Origin: Escherichia coli
GTDB taxonomy: Bacteria > Pseudomonadota > Gammaproteobacteria > Enterobacterales > Enterobacteriaceae
Strand: one strand, 5' to 3'
Length of the DNA: 64,000 nucleotides
Assembly: GCF_001677475.2 (NCBI RefSeq)
Contig: NZ_CP015229.1
Each line of letters begins with the position of its first letter. Within the stretch, counting starts at the first letter, position 1. Made by a program: the position numbers and the translations under genes. The notes below the pieces were generated by a model. That model was not told where the DNA came from. It ran no database searches and saw only the letters and a program-made list of their open reading frames with translations. This document shows, one piece after another, positions 7,158-61,241 of this stretch.

Positions 7158-8657
7158 TTAAATCAACTGCAATGCTATCCAGTACAACCCACCAGAAAGA
7201 AAAATCGCCGCCGGTAAAGTAAACACCCACGCCATCAGGATGCTGGTTACCGTTTTACGCTGTAACCCACCGCCGTCCACCACCATCGTCCCTGCTACCG
7301 CAGACGAGAGGACGTGTGTTGTGGAGACGGGCATCCCAATATAACTGGCAAGGCCGATAGACACTGCCGCCGTCATTTGTGCCGCCATGCCTTGCGCATA
7401 CGTCATGCCGCGCTTACCAATCTTCTCACCGATGGTCATCGCTACACGACGCCAGCCAATCATGGTGCCAATGCCGAGCGCCAGAGCTACTGCCATGATG
7501 ATCCACACCGGAGCGTACTCAATGGTGCTTAACATATCGCTGCGCAGTTTTTTCAGCAGGTTCTGGTCTTCTTTACTGACGCCTGGCAGTTTCGCCAGCT
7601 TCGCGGAGGTATCAGAGATGCACAGCATAATGCGGCGCAGCTGGCTGCGCTGACTCACGCTTAACGGCTCGTAACTTTCCATATTGCCTGGCAGCATCGT
7701 TTTAACGCGCGCAATCGCATCAAAGGTATTTGCCGGATGACAGTGAAACTCCGTCACTTGCGCGCCATCAGTCGATGCCGCAGGCAATGGAGGTTCCATC
7801 GTAATCAACTTCTGCGGCAGTTCAGGATGCTGTTGCAGGTAGTGTTCGAAGTTGGTGACGGCATCGCGGGTACGGGTAATTTCATAGCCGGACGCGTTCA
7901 TATTGACGACGAAGCCAGCAGGGGCAATCCCCACCAGTACCAGCATCACCAGGCCGATCCCTTTCTGCCCGTCGTTAGCGCCGTGCGAAAACGCCACGCC
8001 CGCAGCGGAAACAATCAGCGCAATACGCGTCCAGAATGGCGGCTTACGTTTGCCTTTTTTCTTTTTGCGATCTTCCGGAATGCGGTGAATACGGTCACGC
8101 TTTTTCGTCCCGCTCCAGAAACGGCGCAGCAGGAAAATCAGACCACCCGCAATGACCAGGCCGACGATAGGGGAAACAATCAGCGAGGAGAAAATTTTGG
8201 TCACTTCACGCAGGTTTAACGCATCCATCACCGATGAGCCGGTTAACAGCGCGTTGGTTAAACCGATGCCGATAATTGCACCAATCAAGGTGTGCGAACT
8301 GGAGGCCGGTAAACCAAAGAACCACGTTCCCAGGTTCCAGATAATCGCCGCCAGCAGCATGGAAAAGACCATCGCCAGACCGTGGGTTGACCCCATATTC
8401 AGCAACAAATCGGTTGGCAACATATGGACAATGGCATAGGCAACGCTAAGTCCGCCCAATAACACGCCAAAAAAATTAAAAAATGCCGCCATCACCACAG
8501 CAAGTTGTGGTTGCATGGCACGAGTATAAATAACGGTTGCCACCGCATTCGCCGTGTCATGAAAACCATTGATTGCTTCGTAGAACAACACAAATGCCAG
8601 AGCAAGTAATAACAAAAGCCCTGTGTATATATCAAGGCCAACAAATAAATTTAGCAT
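7158..8657 (-). CDS. pitB: Low-affinity inorganic phosphate transporter (PiT family, 499 aa)
   Basis: PiT-family membrane protein with internal K/R-rich cytoplasmic loop; adjacent to gss as in K-12. Confidence 0.9.
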
Positions 8658-8948: not shown

Positions 8949-10808
8949 TTACTCTTTCACCACAATTAACGGTTCAATATCACTCTCTTTTTTAATGACC
9001 AGTGATTCATCACCGCGCAAACACGTCCCACCGTAGTTGCCGCCAACGGTGAAGGTACATACCTGAATGTATTTACCGTCCACTTTCGGCAAACACCACA
9101 GTTGCTGATAGATGTTTTTCTGCTCGGCAAATTTACCGCTGGTTTTGTCCAGCACCTCTTCATGATGGCTGACGAGGTCGATGTTACTGCCACAGCGACC
9201 GGCGATCGGTTTCACTGCGTAACCTGTTTTTACCAGTTCATCATTAACAGTGAAATCGGTATCCAGCAGGTAGCGATGGTGCGGGAACAGCGACCAGAGG
9301 ATCGGCAGAATCGCTTTGTTGCCGGGGATCACTGTCCACAGAGGTTCAAAGACCAGCACTTCCGGGCGCAGCAATACGTCGATAAGACGCACTTCATTTT
9401 GCGGATGACCGGTACGGATCGGCACCGCAGCAAACTCACGGTCGCTAACTTCACGAATCTGATCAAACGCGGTTTCCCACGCCCAGGTTTTCCACACGCA
9501 GTTAACCAGTCGCCCTTCCCCATCAATCAGTTGCCCGGCAGCATCCCAGCCCAGTTCATCCAGCCCGCGCAAGATACGCGTTTCAAAGCCCGCCTGGTGC
9601 AGCGCCTGCTCCATAAACTGCGCGTGATAGTTTTCCTCGATATCTTTGTCCTGCATGATATGGACAAACGGACGTGCACGACTGTGTTTCCAGGCACCAG
9701 CCAGTTCGTTAATCAGCCCTTCCGCCGGATTGAAGCCGTTGCCTTTATAGCCCTGCTCCGCCCAACGTTCGAGGATCAAGCCAGCTTCGGTATGACAGGA
9801 GGCGGAGTCGGCGTTGTATTCGTAGACCTTCAGGCCACGCTCATCCATGCAGAAATCCATACGACCGGTGATCATATGGTGACGGCGACGCTGCCAGGAG
9901 AGACGCAAACGTGGCCAGAGGATTTTCGGAATGTCGAACAGCGCCAGCAGGTTGTCATCTTTTAGCACCTTGTCGGTTGCGTGAAGATACATCAGGTGCA
10001 GCTCGTTGGTGGCTTTAATCAGCTCCTGCTCGGCGCTCTCGGTAATGGTGTAGTAATGATACGGATCCTGATTGATCACCTGACCGTTGGCCTGCACATA
10101 GGCGTTTTGCAGCGGATCTTTTTCATCCAGCCATTTACCGTCAAACTGGCCTTTGTTTTCCAGACGCGCTCCGCTGATTTTCAGCAGCTCGCCTGCAATT
10201 TCCGGCTGCGGTAAGCTGTATTCAGTATCTTCCGTCTGGATCATCCAGCCCAGAATGGTGGTGTCATCAAAAGTGTCTTTAAGGGTATAGCAGCCGTTTT
10301 CGACCACCATCTCCAGCTCGCGCGTCCACTGTTGTCCTTGCGGCAACGGGGAATGAATCACGTTCTGTTCCGCAATACGGACTTTGTTGCCATGCAATTG
10401 GGTAATGATGGCGACATGGCCGGTGTCTTTAAATTCACCGCCTTTATCCCAGATAAGAAGCGCACCCGCGACCGGCGCACGCGGCGAGCCGTTAGGAAAT
10501 GCCTGCAATGGCAGGATGTTGTCATTAACCACTTCACGCAGGAAGCGCAGCGAGAAAATCTCCCACGCCATACCCACGTCAGTGAAGACCACACCGTAGT
10601 TCAGAAAGAGAAAACGGCGAGCAAATTCAACGCATTGCCATTTGTGGCCCATATATTCGTCGTCGATATAGCTACGGAATACGGCGTCATCTTCGTATTC
10701 CTGCGGATCGAGAGAACTGTAATCTGAAGAGTAGATTGCTACCCCACCTGGGGCGTAGCCCAATAATGTCCCGAACGGGGCATCCTGGCTGGTCGTTCCT
10801 TTGCTCAT
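8949..10808 (-). CDS. gss: Bifunctional glutathionylspermidine synthetase/amidase (619 aa)
   Basis: Begins MSKGTTSQDAPFGTLLGYAPGGVAIYSSDYSS; N-terminal CHAP-type amidase plus C-terminal ATP-grasp synthetase. Confidence 0.95.
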   Translation of the reverse strand: MSKGTTSQDAPFGTLLGYAPGGVAIYSSDYSSLDPQEYEDDAVFRSYIDDEYMGHKWQCVEFARRFLFLNYGVVFTDVGMAWEIFSLRFLREVVNDNILPLQAFPNGSPRAPVAGALLIWDKGGEFKDTGHVAIITQLHGNKVRIAEQNVIHSPLPQGQQWTRELEMVVENGCYTLKDTFDDTTILGWMIQTEDTEYSLPQPEIAGELLKISGARLENKGQFDGKWLDEKDPLQNAYVQANGQVINQDPYHYYTITESAEQELIKATNELHLMYLHATDKVLKDDNLLALFDIPKILWPRLRLSWQRRRHHMITGRMDFCMDERGLKVYEYNADSASCHTEAGLILERWAEQGYKGNGFNPAEGLINELAGAWKHSRARPFVHIMQDKDIEENYHAQFMEQALHQAGFETRILRGLDELGWDAAGQLIDGEGRLVNCVWKTWAWETAFDQIREVSDREFAAVPIRTGHPQNEVRLIDVLLRPEVLVFEPLWTVIPGNKAILPILWSLFPHHRYLLDTDFTVNDELVKTGYAVKPIAGRCGSNIDLVSHHEEVLDKTSGKFAEQKNIYQQLWCLPKVDGKYIQVCTFTVGGNYGGTCLRGDESLVIKKESDIEPLIVVKE

Positions 10809-11012
10809 CACTTTACCTTTAACAATACAACCTAAGCAGTTGGCGTAATTGTTGTGCTCTGATTACCTGCTCAGCGACATTAACCGGACAGAGGTCAGAC
10901 TAATCATACACCTCATCGCAGCGGCTGGTGCAAAGGGTTAAAAAATTCACATTCTGTACAGCAAGTGACCTGCTACACTGCTTCAACACTACCACTCAGA
11001 AGGCAACTCACT

Positions 11013-11879
11013 ATGACAGACAATACTTATCAGCCCGCGAAAGTCTGGACGTGGGATAAATCCGCTGGCGGCGCGTTCGCCAATATCAATCGCCCGGTTT
11101 CTGGTCCGACGCATGAAAAAACGCTGCCCGTTGGCAAACATCCATTGCAACTTTATTCGCTGGGAACGCCGAACGGTCAGAAAGTAACGATTATGCTTGA
11201 GGAGCTGCTGGCGCTGGGCGTTACTGGTGCAGAGTACGATGCCTGGCTGATACGCATAGGCGATGGAGATCAATTCTCCAGCGGCTTTGTCGAAGTGAAC
11301 CCAAATTCGAAGATCCCGGCGCTGCGCGATCATACGCATAATCCGCCGATCCGCGTGTTTGAGTCTGGTTCGATCCTGCTTTATCTGGCAGAGAAATTTG
11401 GCTACTTCTTGCCGCAGGATCTGGCGAAACGTACTGAAGCAATGAACTGGCTGTTCTGGCTACAGGGGGCTGCGCCGTTCCTCGGCGGTGGTTTTGGTCA
11501 CTTTTACCATTACGCGCCGGTGAAAATTGAGTACGCCATCAATCGCTTTACCATGGAAGCCAAGCGCCTGCTCGACGTGCTGGATAAGCAACTGGCGCAG
11601 CATAAGTTTGTTGCGGGCGATGAGTACACCATTGCGGATATGGCGATTTGGCCGTGGTTTGGCAACGTGGTGTTAGGCGGCGTGTATGATGCCGCAGAGT
11701 TTCTTGATGCAGGTAGTTATAAACACGTACAACGCTGGGCGAAAGAAGTAGGCGAACGTCCGGCGGTGAAGCGTGGGCGTATTGTTAACCGCACCAACGG
11801 ACCGCTGAATGAGCAGTTGCATGAGCGCCATGACGCCAGTGATTTCGAGACAAATACAGAAGATAAGCGTCAGGGGTAA
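11013..11879 (+). CDS. yghU: Nu-class glutathione S-transferase-like disulfide reductase (288 aa)
   Basis: Starts MTDNTYQPAKVWTWDKSAGGAFANINRPVSG, matching YghU from memory. Confidence 0.93.
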   Translation: MTDNTYQPAKVWTWDKSAGGAFANINRPVSGPTHEKTLPVGKHPLQLYSLGTPNGQKVTIMLEELLALGVTGAEYDAWLIRIGDGDQFSSGFVEVNPNSKIPALRDHTHNPPIRVFESGSILLYLAEKFGYFLPQDLAKRTEAMNWLFWLQGAAPFLGGGFGHFYHYAPVKIEYAINRFTMEAKRLLDVLDKQLAQHKFVAGDEYTIADMAIWPWFGNVVLGGVYDAAEFLDAGSYKHVQRWAKEVGERPAVKRGRIVNRTNGPLNEQLHERHDASDFETNTEDKRQG

Positions 11880-55198: not shown

Positions 55199-55828
55199 TT
55201 ATGCCCACTCATTTTTTAACGCTTGATGATGCAGCTGCAGCCATTGCAAAGCGATGACCGACGCTGCGTTGTCGATTTTCCCCTCTTCTACCCACTGGTA
55301 TGCCTGTTCCCGGCTTACCACATGAACGCGAATATCTTCGTTTTCATCAGCCAGACCGTGAATACCGCTTGCGGTCGTGGCGTCCACTTCGCCCACCATA
55401 ATTGACGAACGCTCACTGGTGCCCCCCGGGCTTGCCAGGAAACTTAACACCGGTTTGGTCCGTTTGACTATCAGTCCCGCCTCTTCAATCGCTTCGCGAC
55501 GGGCAACATCTTCCACACTTTCACCCTCTTCAATCATCCCGGCAACCATCTCCAGTAGCCAGGGGGTTTCGCTGGTGTCGTACGCGGCAATCCGAATCTG
55601 CTCAATCAGCACAACTTCATCACGCACTGGGTCAAAGGGTAGCAAGACTGCGGCGTGACCGCGCTCAAAAATTTCCCGCCGTACCTCATGACTCATTTGC
55701 CCGTTGAATAGACGATGACGAAATCTATAAAGATCTAATGAAAAAAAGCCGCGATAAAGTGTTTCTCGTGCAATAATTTCTACATCGTTTTTGCCAAATG
55801 TAACGGGCAGGTTGTCTGGCTTAAGCAT
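55199..55828 (-). CDS. nudF: ADP-ribose pyrophosphatase, Nudix hydrolase (209 aa)
   Basis: Nudix box ...REAIEEAGL.... Confidence 0.95.
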
Positions 55829-56032
55829 TGTTAATGTCCTGGCACTAATAGTGAATTAAATGTGAATTTCAGCAACGTTTGACTGCCGTTTGAGCAGTCA
55901 TGTGTTAAATTGAGGCACATTAACGCCCTATGGCACGTAACGCCAACCTTTTGCGGTAGCGGCTTCTGCTAGAATCCGCAATAATTTTACAGTTTGATCG
56001 CGCTAAATACTGCTTCACCACAAGGAATGCAA
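55829..56032. promoter_or_regulatory. Divergent nudF / tolC promoter region
   Basis: Intergenic region upstream of tolC; regulated by MarA/SoxS/Rob and EvgA/PhoP in E. coli (established knowledge, sites not mapped here). Confidence 0.4.
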
Positions 56033-57514
56033 ATGAAGAAATTGCTCCCCATTCTTATCGGCCTGAGCCTTTCTGGGTTCAGTTCGTTGAGCCAGGCCGA
56101 GAACCTGATGCAAGTTTATCAGCAAGCACGCCTTAGTAACCCGGAATTGCGTAAGTCTGCCGCCGATCGTGATGCTGCCTTTGAAAAAATTAATGAAGCG
56201 CGCAGTCCATTACTGCCACAGCTAGGTTTAGGTGCAGATTACACCTATAGCAACGGCTACCGCGACGCGAACGGCATCAACTCTAACGCGACCAGTGCGT
56301 CCCTGCAGTTAACTCAATCCATTTTTGATATGTCGAAATGGCGTGCGTTAACGCTGCAGGAAAAAGCAGCAGGGATTCAGGACGTCACGTATCAGACCGA
56401 TCAGCAAACCTTGATCCTCAACACCGCGACCGCTTATTTCAACGTGTTGAATGCTATTGACGTTCTTTCCTATACACAGGCGCAAAAAGAAGCGATCTAC
56501 CGTCAATTAGATCAAACCACCCAACGTTTTAACGTGGGCCTGGTAGCGATCACCGACGTGCAGAATGCCCGCGCACAGTACGATACCGTGCTGGCGAACG
56601 AAGTGACCGCACGTAATAACCTTGATAACGCGGTAGAGCAGCTGCGCCAGATCACCGGTAACTACTATCCGGAACTGGCGGCGCTGAATGTCGAAAACTT
56701 TAAAACCGACAAACCGCAGCCGGTTAACGCGCTGCTGAAAGAAGCCGAAAAACGCAACCTGTCGCTGTTACAGGCACGCTTGAGCCAGGACCTGGCGCGC
56801 GAGCAAATTCGCCAGGCGCAGGATGGTCACTTACCGACTCTGGATTTAACGGCTTCTACCGGGATTTCTGACACCTCTTATAGCGGTTCGAAAACCCGTG
56901 GTGCCGCTGGTACCCAGTATGACGATAGCAATATGGGCCAGAACAAAGTTGGCCTGAGCTTCTCGCTGCCGATTTATCAGGGCGGAATGGTTAACTCGCA
57001 GGTGAAACAGGCACAGTACAACTTTGTTGGTGCCAGCGAGCAACTGGAAAGCGCGCATCGTAGCGTCGTGCAAACCGTACGTTCCTCCTTCAACAACATT
57101 AATGCTTCTATCAGTAGTATTAACGCCTACAAACAAGCCGTAGTTTCCGCTCAAAGCTCATTAGACGCGATGGAAGCGGGCTACTCGGTCGGTACGCGTA
57201 CCATTGTTGATGTGTTGGATGCGACCACCACGCTGTACAACGCCAAGCAAGAGCTGGCGAATGCGCGTTATAACTACCTGATTAATCAGCTGAATATTAA
57301 GTCAGCCCTGGGTACGTTGAACGAGCAGGATCTGCTGGCACTGAACAATGCGCTGAGCAAACCGGTTTCCACTAACCCGGAAAACGTTGCCCCGCAAACG
57401 CCGGAACAGAATGCTATTGCTGATGGTTATGCACCTGATAGCCCGGCACCCGTCGTTCAGCAAACATCCGCACGCACTACCACCAGTAACGGTCATAACC
57501 CTTTCCGTAACTGA
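56033..57514 (+). CDS. tolC: Outer membrane efflux channel TolC (493 aa)
   Basis: MKKLLPILIGLSLSGFSSLSQAENLMQVYQQARLSNPELRKS. Confidence 0.97.
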   Translation: MKKLLPILIGLSLSGFSSLSQAENLMQVYQQARLSNPELRKSAADRDAAFEKINEARSPLLPQLGLGADYTYSNGYRDANGINSNATSASLQLTQSIFDMSKWRALTLQEKAAGIQDVTYQTDQQTLILNTATAYFNVLNAIDVLSYTQAQKEAIYRQLDQTTQRFNVGLVAITDVQNARAQYDTVLANEVTARNNLDNAVEQLRQITGNYYPELAALNVENFKTDKPQPVNALLKEAEKRNLSLLQARLSQDLAREQIRQAQDGHLPTLDLTASTGISDTSYSGSKTRGAAGTQYDDSNMGQNKVGLSFSLPIYQGGMVNSQVKQAQYNFVGASEQLESAHRSVVQTVRSSFNNINASISSINAYKQAVVSAQSSLDAMEAGYSVGTRTIVDVLDATTTLYNAKQELANARYNYLINQLNIKSALGTLNEQDLLALNNALSKPVSTNPENVAPQTPEQNAIADGYAPDSPAPVVQQTSARTTTSNGHNPFRN

Positions 57515-57661
57515 TGACGATGACGGGGCTTCGGCCCCGTCTGAACGTAAGGCAACGTAAAGATACGGGTTATCTGCCGCATTCTTCCCCCTTCTCGCTT
57601 CAATTTCGACCAGCCATCCTCTATTCTGATGGGTATTTACCACTGGTCCCGGAAGACAAAA

Positions 57662-58333
57662 ATGAAACGGACAAAATCCATACGCCACGCATCGTTCCGC
57701 AAAAACTGGAGCGCACGCCATCTGACACCAGTCGCTCTCGCGGTTGCCACTGTTTTTATGCTGGCTGGCTGTGAAAAGAGTGATGAAACAGTGTCTCTCT
57801 ATCAAAATGCTGACGACTGTTCAGCTGCAAACCCAGGCAAAAGCGCCGAATGTACCACTGCGTACAACAATGCGCTGAAAGAAGCCGAACGTACTGCGCC
57901 GAAATACGCCACCCGTGAAGACTGTGTTGCTGAATTTGGTGAAGGTCAGTGCCAGCAGGCACCAGCCCAGGCTGGTATGGCACCAGAAAACCAGGCGCAG
58001 GCCCAGCAATCCAGCGGAAGTTTCTGGATGCCGCTGATGGCCGGTTACATGATGGGGCGTCTGATGGGCGGCGGCGCGGGATTTGCACAGCAGCCGCTGT
58101 TCTCCTCGAAAAACCCAGCCAGCCCGGCTTACGGTAAATATACCGACGCGACGGGTAAAAACTATGGCGCAGCGCAGCCAGGCCGCACCATGACCGTACC
58201 GAAGACGGCAATGGCACCAAAACCGGCGACCACCACCACCGTTACTCGTGGCGGTTTTGGTGAATCTGTTGCCAAACAAAGCACTATGCAGCGTAGCGCA
58301 ACCGGCACCTCTTCTCGTTCAATGGGTGGCTGA
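57662..58333 (+). CDS. ygiB: DUF1190 lipoprotein-like protein (223 aa)
   Basis: Lipobox LAGC; start at internal Met ([12 protein letters not shown]). Confidence 0.88.
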
Positions 58334-58338
58334 TACCG

Positions 58339-59499
58339 ATGGAAAGAGTCAGTATTACCGAGCGCCCGGACTGGCGCGAAAAAGCCCACGAATACGGTTT
58401 CAATTTTCACACCATGTACGGCGAGCCGTACTGGTGTGAAGATGCTTACTACAAGTTGACCCTCGCCCAGGTTGAAAAGCTGGAAGAAGTCACCGCCGAA
58501 CTGCACCAGATGTGCCTGAAAGTGGTGGAAAAAGTGATCGCCAGCGATGAGCTGATGACCAAATTCCGCATTCCAAAACACACCTGGAGTTTTGTGCGCC
58601 AGTCATGGCTGACTCACCAGCCATCGCTTTATTCGCGTCTTGATCTGGCGTGGGATGGCACTGGCGAACCTAAACTTCTGGAAAATAACGCCGATACGCC
58701 AACGTCACTATACGAGGCGGCGTTCTTTCAGTGGATCTGGCTGGAAGATCAGCTTAACGCCGGTAACTTGCCGGAGGGCAGCGACCAGTTTAACAGTCTG
58801 CAAGAAAAACTGATCGATCGCTTCGTTGAGCTGCGTGAACAGTATGGCTTCCAGTTGCTGCATCTCACCTGCTGTCGCGACACGGTGGAAGATCGCGGAA
58901 CCATTCAGTATTTGCAGGACTGCGCGACAGAAGCTGAAATCGCTACTGAATTCCTCTACATCGACGATATCGGTTTAGGCGAAAAAGGTCAGTTCACGGA
59001 TTTACAGGACCAGGTGATTTCTAACCTGTTCAAGCTGTATCCGTGGGAATTTATGCTGCGTGAGATGTTCTCCACCAAGCTGGAGGATGCAGGCGTACGC
59101 TGGCTGGAACCGGCGTGGAAGAGCATTATCTCCAACAAAGCGCTTCTGCCGCTACTGTGGGAGATGTTCCCGAATCACCCGAATCTGCTGCCTGCTTATT
59201 TTGCGGAAGATGATCATCCGCAAATGGAAAAATATGTGGTTAAACCGATCTTCTCCCGTGAAGGCGCAAACGTGTCGATCATTGAGAACGGCAAAACCAT
59301 TGAAGCAGCGGAAGGTCCGTATGGCGAAGAAGGGATGATTGTTCAGCAATTCCACCCGTTACCGAAATTTGGCGACAGCTATATGCTGATTGGTAGCTGG
59401 CTGGTGAACGATCAACCTGCCGGAATTGGCATTCGTGAAGACCGTGCATTGATCACCCAGGATATGTCTCGGTTTTATCCACATATTTTTGTTGAATAA
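58339..59499 (+). CDS. ygiC: Glutathionylspermidine-synthetase-like ATP-grasp protein (386 aa)
   Basis: Paralogous to the Gss synthetase domain ([10 protein letters not shown] vs YEYNADSASC; [17 protein letters not shown] vs AILPILWSLFPHHRYLL). Confidence 0.93.
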
Positions 59500-59504
59500 G
59501 CCAT

Positions 59505-59533
59505 GATACCGGATGGCACTCGCCATCCGGTAA
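59505..59533. terminator. Bidirectional terminator hairpin between convergent ygiC and ygiD
   Basis: accggatggc-actc-gccatccggt perfect 10-bp stem. Confidence 0.6.
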
Positions 59534-59536
59534 TTA

Positions 59537-60325
59537 TTAGCCTATCAGCACCGACAACATACTTAAACTGCCCATTTCTATACCATCGACCGGAATGGTA
59601 ATTGGCTCCTGCCCATCCCACGCACCTAAGACATACAACAACGGCAGATAGTGCTCTGGCGTTGGGTTCGATAACGCGCCACCTTCATGGTCGAGATAAT
59701 TCACCAGAGGATGCTGCTCTACCGGCCCTTGCCACGTCAGATTCGCTTTCACATACTCATTAAACGACGTCGCCCACGGATACGGTGAACTATCACCGTG
59801 CCACTTCACTGTGCGCAGGTTATGCACCACGTTACCGCTGGCGACCAACATTATTCCTTCATCCCGCAGCGCTGCCAGTTTGCGCCCCATTTCGAAATGC
59901 CAGGCAGCAGGTTTGCTACTGTCGATACTCAACTGCACCATCGGGATATCGGCGTCAGGATACATCTTAATCAGCACGCCCCACGAGCCGTGGTCAAAGC
60001 CCCAGGCTTCTTTATCCAGCGTCACCGGGACCGGCGCTAACAGCTCAACCAGATGCTGTGCCAGCGCAGGCGAACCCGGAGCAGGATAATGCGTGTCGTA
60101 CAGCGCCTGCGGGAAGCCACCAAAGTCATGAATCGTGGGCGGCGTCTCCATCGCGGTCACTCCTGTTCCACGGGTAAACCAGTGAGCCGAAACCACCACA
60201 ATCGCTTGCGGGCGTGGCAATGTCATCCCCAACTTCTGCCAGCTGCGGGTATACAAATTATCTTCCAGCACGTTCATCGGACTACCGTGACCTAAAAACA
60301 ATGCTGGCATACGTGTTGAAGACAT
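59537..60325 (-). CDS. ygiD: Extradiol ring-cleavage dioxygenase family protein (262 aa)
   Basis: MSSTRMPALFLGHGSPMN; start at internal Met of track ORF. Confidence 0.9.
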   Translation of the reverse strand: MSSTRMPALFLGHGSPMNVLEDNLYTRSWQKLGMTLPRPQAIVVVSAHWFTRGTGVTAMETPPTIHDFGGFPQALYDTHYPAPGSPALAQHLVELLAPVPVTLDKEAWGFDHGSWGVLIKMYPDADIPMVQLSIDSSKPAAWHFEMGRKLAALRDEGIMLVASGNVVHNLRTVKWHGDSSPYPWATSFNEYVKANLTWQGPVEQHPLVNYLDHEGGALSNPTPEHYLPLLYVLGAWDGQEPITIPVDGIEMGSLSMLSVLIG

Positions 60326-60467
60326 GATGATATCCTTAACTAAAGGTGTCATTTTGATATCCTCACAATACGCTTGTTTGGCGGAGTAAGAACCCGGATA
60401 ACAATGATGATGATCATCAGTTATTTTGACGATCTGCCTGAAGGTGAAGATTTATAAGGAGTTGTCG

Positions 60468-61241
60468 ATGTCAGTACCTCTCATTCTGACCATACTGGCG
60501 GGGGCAGCCACGTTTATTGGCGCGTTTCTCGGCGTTCTCGGGCAAAAACCCTCGAACCGCTTACTGGCGTTTTCGCTAGGATTTGCGGCGGGGATCATGT
60601 TGCTCATCTCATTAATGGAAATGCTTCCTGCCGCACTAGCAGCTGAAGGAATGTCGCCTGTGTTGGGTTATGGAATGTTTATCTTCGGTCTGCTTGGCTA
60701 TTTTGGCCTGGACCGCATGTTGCCACATGCGCATCCGCAGGATTTAATGCAAAAATCGGTGCAGCCGTTGCCAAAATCGATCAAGCGCACAGCCATTCTG
60801 CTCACTCTCGGCATCAGTCTGCATAACTTCCCGGAAGGGATTGCCACCTTTGTCACGGCGAGCAGCAACCTGGAGCTGGGCTTTGGCATCGCACTGGCCG
60901 TTGCGTTACACAATATTCCTGAAGGTCTGGCGGTTGCAGGCCCGGTTTACGCGGCAACGGGGTCTAAACGCACCGCGATTCTTTGGGCGGGGATTTCTGG
61001 ACTGGCAGAAATTCTTGGTGGTGTGCTGGCGTGGTTAATCCTCGGTAGCATGATTTCCCCGGTGGTCATGGCGGCAATCATGGCGGCGGTTGCAGGAATT
61101 ATGGTGGCGCTCTCGGTTGATGAATTAATGCCGCTCGCCAAAGAGATTGACCCTAATAATAACCCCAGCTATGGCGTACTATGTGGAATGTCAGTGATGG
61201 GATTCAGTTTAGTGCTGCTACAAACGGCGGGAATTGGTTAA
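60468..61241 (+). CDS. zupT: ZIP-family zinc/divalent-metal transporter (257 aa)
   Basis: [25 protein letters not shown]; start at internal Met of track ORF. Confidence 0.93.

Follow-up and report, generated by a model that had tools for sequence, protein, structure and literature searches.

The window analysed here is a stretch of 64,000 nucleotides of Escherichia coli DNA. It encodes YgiC (58339..59499, + strand), a stand-alone ATP-grasp acid-amine ligase of 386 aa from the GSP_synth family. The gene follows ygiB (57662..58333, + strand), which encodes a DUF1190 protein of 223 aa (Pfam DUF1190, 187 bits; PRK11653, 404 bits over residues 1-223). Directly upstream of this pair lies tolC (56033..57514, + strand), the gene of the outer membrane channel (NCBIfam PRK09465, 825.9 bits). 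A preliminary description of the window had placed ygiB-ygiC directly after tolC, and the coordinates of the three genes, all on the + strand, bear this out. The 11 kb around ygiC align to E. coli K-12 MG1655 with no gap and with 98.2% nucleotide identity, and the gene order in K-12 is parE-yqiA-cpdA-yqiB-nudF-tolC-ygiB-ygiC-ygiD-zupT-yqiD-ribB. The 3.7-kb stretch spanning tolC, ygiB, and ygiC was found in 5425 of the 5426 complete E. coli genomes. None of these three genes has a non-synonymous difference from K-12: TolC is 100% identical, with 18 synonymous differences only, YgiB is identical to its K-12 counterpart, and in ygiC there are 24 synonymous differences and 0 non-synonymous ones. 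Since all the differences are synonymous, the sequences indicate that tolC, ygiB, and ygiC are under strong purifying selection in a natural E. coli strain. The possibility that the genome is recoded or synthetic was considered and rejected: DNA identity to complete E. coli genomes peaks at 99.0%, but the synonymous changes are scattered and of the ordinary sort found in natural DNA. The YgiC protein is 100% identical to that of the solved structures PDB 7uk8 and 7uka. With the same locus and 100% amino-acid identity, it is orthologous to the characterised YgiC of K-12, which carries the RefSeq product name 'peptide--spermidine ligase YgiC'. Across Enterobacterales, the identity of YgiC ranges from 77% to 100%.

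The spacers flanking ygiB and ygiC carry several features that bear on transcription. A GC-rich hairpin (GACGGGGC-TTCG-GCCCCGTC; 57522..57541, + strand) lies 8 nt past the tolC stop codon, with a folding energy of -21.6 kcal/mol (z = -3.2). It is missing a U-tract and was not called by the terminator scan, which covered positions 55800-60500 and gave no + strand terminator in the tolC-ygiB spacer. The hairpin is not a canonical terminator of the intrinsic type, and it leaves room for partial read-through to ygiB. The arrangement is that expected of an operon: tolC, ygiB, and ygiC lie on the same strand, with no canonical intrinsic terminator before ygiB. The spacer also contains a CpxR-box-like direct repeat (GTAAG-N5-GTAAA; 57547..57561, + strand) about 100 nt before the ygiB ATG. 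It has one mismatch to GTAAA-N5-GTAAA, and the window as a whole holds 4 such matches against 3.6 expected, i.e., no enrichment. Its position agrees with that of the CpxR site located 91 bp upstream of ygiB in Citrobacter rodentium, where a published study described an independent Cpx-dependent ygiB promoter with the CpxR site between tolC and ygiB. A consensus scan of positions 55800-60500 gave no sigma-70 promoter on the + strand of the tolC-ygiB spacer. A weak candidate promoter (TTCAAT-17-TATTCT) can be made out by eye at 57599-57627. Only 5 nt separate the ygiB stop codon from the ygiC ATG. Further downstream, a strong hairpin (59503..59537; -22.8 kcal/mol, z = -5.65) occupies the gap between ygiC and ygiD, which are convergent, and is likely to mark the 3' end of the ygiBC transcript. 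Co-transcription of tolC-ygiBC as an operon has been reported (Dhamdhere & Zgurskaya 2010, as quoted in a 2025 TolC review), and the layout of the tolC-ygiB spacer and its hairpin, as far as it can be read from the sequence, fits this published operon.

The same window contains gss (8949..10808, - strand), which encodes a bifunctional glutathionylspermidine amidase/synthetase of 619 aa counted from its ATG. The preliminary description had taken the two proteins for Gss-type ATP-grasp paralogs, with YgiC matching the C-terminal synthetase half of Gss and lacking the N-terminal amidase. All three statements hold. The homology can be observed directly: BLASTP aligns residues 22-386 of YgiC with residues 241-618 of Gss (27% identity, 45% positives, E = 2e-38), a similarity well above what chance would give. 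So can the domain architecture. YgiC matches Pfam GSP_synth (PF03738) with 546.7 bits, for a cutoff of 29.3, over residues 12-384 and the entire profile (positions 1-371 of 371), and this full-length match is its sole Pfam hit. Gss has a CHAP domain (residues 52-149) followed by GSP_synth (251-615). The CHAP amidase domain is absent from YgiC in the Pfam search, and the protein starts at about residue 220 of Gss. The ATP-grasp fold of YgiC is that of 7uk8/7uka, with which it shares its sequence, and AlphaFold2 (AF2) gave a pLDDT mostly above 90 over the YgiC part of our model. On NCBIfam PRK10507, the equivalog model of Gss, the window's Gss scores 1282 bits and YgiC 168.1 bits, above and below the cutoff of 882, respectively. 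After itself, the best match of YgiC among PDB structures is YjfC (7uk6, E = 1e-129), compared with 3e-34 for Gss. Judging from these comparisons, YgiC and the synthetase half of Gss are true paralogs, and YgiC, devoid of the amidase, is not itself a Gss.

The conservation of the active site suggests that the catalytic chemistry was kept while the substrate changed. The structure paper on the Leishmania trypanothione synthetase (PMC2427367) gives the residues of EcGSPS involved with the triphosphate, Mg2+, and transition state (R316, D318, E330, N332, K498, K533, and R598). In the alignment, all seven are retained in YgiC (as R100, D102, E115, N117, K267, K302, and R366), and they are present in 32-33 of 33 diverse family representatives (35-51% identity). 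The acidic pair E391/E392 of EcGSPS is also retained, as E184/D185. The glutathione pocket has changed. Three of the five residues of the S2 pocket of EcGSPS (S335, D387, E392, A443, and T446) have non-conservative replacements in YgiC: D387 corresponds to C179 (Val in most relatives), A443 to P235 (invariant in the family), and T446 to F238 (Trp in most relatives). The other two correspond to T120 (S335) and D185 (E392). Such a pattern is the one expected of an enzyme that would keep the acyl-phosphate chemistry and act on a different carboxylate substrate. In the literature, YgiC was reported to lack glutathionylspermidine synthetase activity (Sui 2012) and to have peptide-spermidine ligase activity (Pederick 2023), both as quoted in the 2025 TolC review. 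In that review, YgiC and YjfC still have no known physiological substrate, and YgiB no known function. A 2025 analysis lists the glutathionylspermidine synthetase call on YgiC as a typical mis-prediction. Given the equivalog score, the altered pocket, and the reported lack of activity, the name 'glutathionylspermidine synthetase' is very probably not right for YgiC, and the label 'glutathionylspermidine synthase family' on YgiC-like proteins should not be taken to imply that activity.

Relatives of the GSP_synth type form 734 clusters at 50% identity (E < 1e-30), most of them stand-alone proteins of about 385 aa. We analysed the neighbourhood of the ligase gene in 80 loci, each from a different species. 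A DUF1190 gene is observed in 71 of the 80, usually directly upstream and on the same strand, and the gap between the two genes is mostly within about 15 nt, or they overlap. The pairing with an upstream partner reaches 76 of 80 loci if one includes the divergent partners (five or six) that keep the RGGFG motif described below. Such ygiB-like genes adjoin ygiC-like genes across Proteobacteria. The gene tolC is adjacent in 16 of the 80 loci, all from Enterobacterales. The loci of Serratia, Edwardsiella, Hafnia, and one Erwinia have no tolC upstream. With DUF1190 in 71 loci versus tolC in 16, the conserved unit is ygiB-ygiC, and the linkage to tolC is a lineage-specific placement. Outside Enterobacterales, the usual context is a K+ channel, DUF2491, DUF350, DUF1190, and then the ligase, which matches yjfKLMC of E. 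coli; a comparative study of PspA systems had already noted the DUF2491-DUF350-DUF1190-ligase association. Two apparent DUF1190-YgiC fusions (P0001 and P0002, 569 aa, from two E. coli assemblies) were discarded, because their reading frame shifts close to the end of ygiB, most likely through an assembly error or a mutation. No true DUF1190-YgiC fusion was found in the family, whose other long members carry unrelated extensions.

The partner protein is most conserved at its end. YgiB consists of an N-terminal lipobox-type anchor, an acidic domain with four Cys, a conserved 12-residue segment, and a basic tail. About 60 of the 71 DUF1190 partners likewise start with a lipobox or anchor. Sequence comparison singles out the C-terminal tail, which carries two motifs, as the best conserved part of the partner. 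The first is RGGFG (residues 196-200 of YgiB; codons at 58247..58261, + strand), part of a T-x-x-R-G-G-F-G motif located 10-30 residues upstream of the C-terminus of the partners. Its R and two G are invariant and its F is at least 90% conserved in a paired alignment of 30 rows, and it is found across classes, even in partners outside Pfam recognition. The second is the C-terminal Met-Gly-Gly (codons at 58322..58330, + strand), which follows the family pattern M/W/F/Y-G-G with a free carboxyl end. The GG terminus is present in 68 of the 71 DUF1190 partners; 60 of these 68 have M, W, F, or Y at -3, the residue at -4 is Ser or Gly, and the one at -5 is often Arg. Five partners from Bradyrhizobium/Tardiphaga, in which DUF1190 was not detected with our own profile, Pfam, or NCBIfam, keep RGGFG...GG and end in ...RGGFGSFGHAVGFSGG. 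In total, 73 of the 80 loci have a GG-ending partner; among the 1077 ORFs of 150 aa or more that served as background, the number is 7. The inner 12-residue segment has a KD19 of about 1.0-1.2, and of less than 1.0 in E. coli. Such hydropathy is too weak for calling a second membrane-spanning helix in YgiB, which would leave the tail in the cytoplasm, although the distribution of charges between the acidic domain and the basic tail would fit it.

The conservation of this tail, the activation of a C-terminal glycine carboxylate (that of glutathione) by Gss-type enzymes (PMC2427367), and the missing natural substrate of the peptide ligase together lead us to raise a proposal. The acyl substrate that YgiC and YjfC use in the cell might be the C-terminal Gly-Gly carboxylate of their own partner, YgiB or YjfM; we regard this as tentative and, on balance, rather unlikely. 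YgiC would dock on the RGGFG-containing tail of YgiB and transfer a phosphate to the carboxylate of the last glycine, just as Gss treats the glycine of glutathione. Spermidine or another amine would then amidate this carboxylate, to give a polyamine-capped envelope protein. The modification would either precede lipoprotein export, or the tail would in fact be cytoplasmic. The proposal draws on the partner gene lying immediately upstream of the ligase gene, on the same strand and mostly within about 15 nt of it or overlapping it, on the near-universal GG end with its preferred residues at -3, on the persistence of RGGFG...GG in the five partners without a recognisable DUF1190, and on the rarity of GG ends in background ORFs. 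It also agrees with the ligation of spermidine to peptides reported for YgiC in the quoted part of the literature, with the published recovery of YgiC in inner-membrane fractions, and with a eukaryotic precedent, the attachment of spermidine to the C-terminal LGG carboxylate of SUMO/ubiquitin (PMC12270671).

Other observations count against it. The lipobox or anchor predicts a periplasmic position for the tail, which would put it out of the reach of YgiC, a cytoplasmic enzyme in need of ATP, unless it were modified before export; and the inner hydrophobic segment is too weak for calling the second transmembrane helix that would solve this problem. The two apparent DUF1190-YgiC fusions, being frameshifts, lend the link no support either. 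We modelled with AF2 the YgiC sequence joined to the YgiB tail by a 30-aa Gly/Ser linker, using 30 paired rows. The RGGFG segment obtained a pLDDT of 61-81, but this docking signal is not specific, because the motif still reached 65 in a control with the reversed tail, and the pLDDT of the terminal SMGG is about 33. Our literature search retrieved no proposal of a link between the YgiB tail and YgiC; Pederick 2023 lay beyond its reach, and the idea may already have been tested there. It is conceivable, if doubtful, that YgiB, YjfM, and the other DUF1190-type partners are the missing substrate, and that these enzymes perform a bacterial C-terminal protein polyamination tied to envelope stress. 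The near-universal partner end, RGGFG followed by an aromatic residue or Met and Gly-Gly, is the new lead of this work and offers a concrete and cheaply testable substrate candidate. If true, the proposal would establish a new type of protein modification at the C-terminus in bacteria, and might help explain why tolC mutants have their growth defect buffered by these genes.

The preliminary description had also drawn on the presence of gss and ygiC within 50 kb of each other. The two genes are separated by about 47.5 kb and, a point on which that description was silent, lie on opposite strands. They have different neighbours: gss has a divergent one encoding a YghU-type glutathione-dependent disulfide-bond oxidoreductase (11010..11879, + strand; PRK11752, 557 bits, cutoff 325), whereas that of ygiC is the DUF1190 gene. 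Through its YghU-type neighbour the context of gss is glutathione-themed, and that of ygiC is not. That the two genes are in the same region could reflect a duplication in place or a polyamine-thiol supercluster with a function, but we consider either very unlikely, since apart from the physical distance there is nothing to suggest them. The identity of Gss and YgiC is only 27%, from which we take their divergence to be ancient. YjfC is far nearer to YgiC than Gss is, and published studies assign yjfC to the yjf PspA-type operon, in another part of the chromosome. The ligase genes recovered from 80 other genomes accompany DUF1190, DUF350, and DUF2491, and none of them is of the size of gss, all encoding about 385-410 aa. 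The strands, the low identity, the different neighbours, and the location of the closest paralog show that the proximity of gss and ygiC has no functional meaning. The suggestion of a peptide or amide ligase chemistry that is related to that of Gss but distinct from it is supported. It agrees with the retained catalytic set, the changed glutathione pocket, and the published peptide-spermidine ligase activity. Two points of the preliminary description find no support: the distance is meaningless, and the adjacency to tolC, observed in only 16 of the 80 loci, is not the conserved feature.

It is similarly improbable that YgiC is a second, redundant glutathionylspermidine synthetase. The two proteins have the Pfam family GSP_synth in common, and the name persists in many database entries, but the 168 bits of YgiC on the equivalog model fall far from the cutoff of 882, the pocket residues D387, A443, and T446 are replaced, and the published reports, as far as they are quoted, deny it this activity or list the call as a typical mis-prediction. 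The gene neighbourhoods, with a DUF1190 gene beside ygiC and a glutathione-dependent oxidoreductase gene beside gss, point in the same direction. That YgiC is a decaying, catalytically dead paralog retained only as a scaffold is scarcely credible, as nothing beyond its quoted lack of glutathionylspermidine synthetase activity favours it, against the invariant catalytic residues, the 24 synonymous and 0 non-synonymous differences from K-12, the 77-100% identity over Enterobacterales, and the published ATP-dependent peptide-spermidine ligase activity, also known to us by quotation.

Our main reading, to which we give a probability of about 0.88, is that this natural E. coli segment carries gss together with an ancient amidase-less paralog, ygiC, which encodes a working ATP-grasp ligase and is part of a ygiB-ygiC module behind tolC. 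By homology, YgiC would use ATP and Mg2+ to phosphorylate the carboxylate of its substrate, and an amine would attack the resulting acyl-phosphate to form an amide. The carboxylate pocket would no longer fit glutathione, and spermidine would be joined to peptides instead, according to the quoted literature. The present analysis demonstrates the homology, the domain architecture, the conserved residues, the purifying selection, and the conservation of the gene pair. We infer the acyl-phosphate mechanism, as well as a putative role in envelope stress; the cited papers supply the operon, the regulation by Cpx, and, at second hand, the activities of the enzymes. The genes ygiB and ygiC would be translationally coupled, and the linkage to tolC would permit read-through beside an internal, probably Cpx-responsive, promoter. 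Both gss and ygiC, their paralogy, the distinct chemistry of YgiC, and the linkage to tolC have all been published and annotated already.

The closest known system is the YgiC of E. coli K-12 (b3038; 7uk8/7uka). The protein is identical and the locus tolC-ygiB-ygiC-ygiD is common to both; only the DNA differs, by the synonymous changes in ygiC that one expects of another E. coli lineage. Gss/GspSA (2io7, 3o98) and the trypanothione synthetase-amidase (2vob) share with YgiC the GSP_synth ATP-grasp domain, the seven phosphate/Mg2+/transition-state residues, and the acidic pair E391/E392. Unlike Gss, YgiC has no CHAP domain, an altered pocket, a score below the equivalog cutoff, other neighbours, and, in the quoted reports, no glutathionylspermidine synthetase activity. 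The closest paralog of YgiC is YjfC (7uk6/7uk7), which belongs to the yjfIJKLMC PspA-type operon and has 51% identity in locus L062. A DUF1190 gene precedes both: in the case of yjfC this is yjfM, whose product ends in ...GHWGG and, unlike YgiB, is devoid of the lipobox cysteine. The context of yjfC, which lies outside the window, is DUF2491-DUF350-DUF1190-ligase, not tolC. Two further systems resemble the proposed modification of YgiB by analogy only. RimK is an ATP-grasp enzyme that modifies the C-terminal carboxylate of ribosomal protein S6, a partner protein, as we propose for YgiC. It has been named an amidoligase in published work; RimK adds glutamates and is from another ATP-grasp family than YgiC. 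In the spermidine conjugates of SUMO/ubiquitin, spermidine is amide-linked to a C-terminal Gly-Gly, as it would be in YgiB, whereas the SUMO conjugate is made via E1/E2 thioester chemistry.

The partner proteins of YgiC-family ligases share a distinctive C-terminus. In 73 of the 80 fetched loci carrying such ligase genes, which come from different species (L002-L081), the partner ends in [M/W/F/Y]-Gly-Gly, preceded by a conserved T-x-x-RGGFG motif; a Gly-Gly terminus was found in 7 of 1077 background ORFs. In YgiB, the tail corresponds to residues 191-223 (window 58232..58330). The ORFs directly upstream of the ligase gene in Bradyrhizobium and Tardiphaga (L056:4378-4995, L057:4399-4995, L060:42-458, L061:4323-4994, and L078:4399-4995) have no Pfam or NCBIfam match and only a single hydrophobic segment. 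They nevertheless end in ...RGGFGSFGHAVGFSGG, and the tail is thus kept where the DUF1190 domain is not. The partner-protein tail is a candidate for the natural substrate of these ligases.

The start of ygiB is probably at 57662. If used, an in-frame ATG 33 nt upstream (57629..57661) would give a product of 234 aa, but the NCBIfam profile spans the 223-aa form from residue 1 to residue 223, in favour of the downstream start. Two E. coli proteins of 569 aa (P0001 and P0002, from the VEE15 and VEE48 assemblies) are annotated as DUF1190 plus GSP_synth. A genuine fusion was ruled out for both, as there is a frameshift close to the 3' end of ygiB.

In the spacer between tolC and ygiB, 8 nt past the tolC stop codon, lies a hairpin (57522..57541) that is GC-rich, has a UUCG loop and lacks a U-tract. 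It may reduce read-through or make the 3' end of the mRNA more stable. It is followed by a CpxR-box-like repeat, GTAAGgcaacGTAAA (57547..57561), and a weak promoter-like pair, TTCAAT-17-TATTCT (57599..57627). Both lie where the Cpx-dependent promoter of ygiB reported in C. rodentium would lead one to expect them. The arrangement is not distinctive statistically. Downstream, ygiD (59537..60352) differs from K-12 by five amino acids (R100H, I108V, T226A, E256D, and Q269L), whereas its neighbours tolC, ygiB, ygiC, zupT, and ribB show no amino-acid difference.

In the segment 8949..11879, gss forms a divergent pair with a gene encoding a YghU-type glutathione-dependent disulfide-bond oxidoreductase. 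Ahead of gss lies a gene for a PitA-type phosphate transporter (7158..8657).

Outside Enterobacterales, the ligase lies in an operon of the E. coli yjfKLMC type, K+ channel-DUF2491-DUF350-DUF1190-ligase, as in L023 (2206-6739), where a rhomboid gene follows, and similarly in L024, L027, L031, L034, L036, L040, L052, L062, and L074. The closest non-enteric homologs of YgiC (58-61% identity) are found in this context, yet E. coli YjfC itself is only 51% identical to YgiC.
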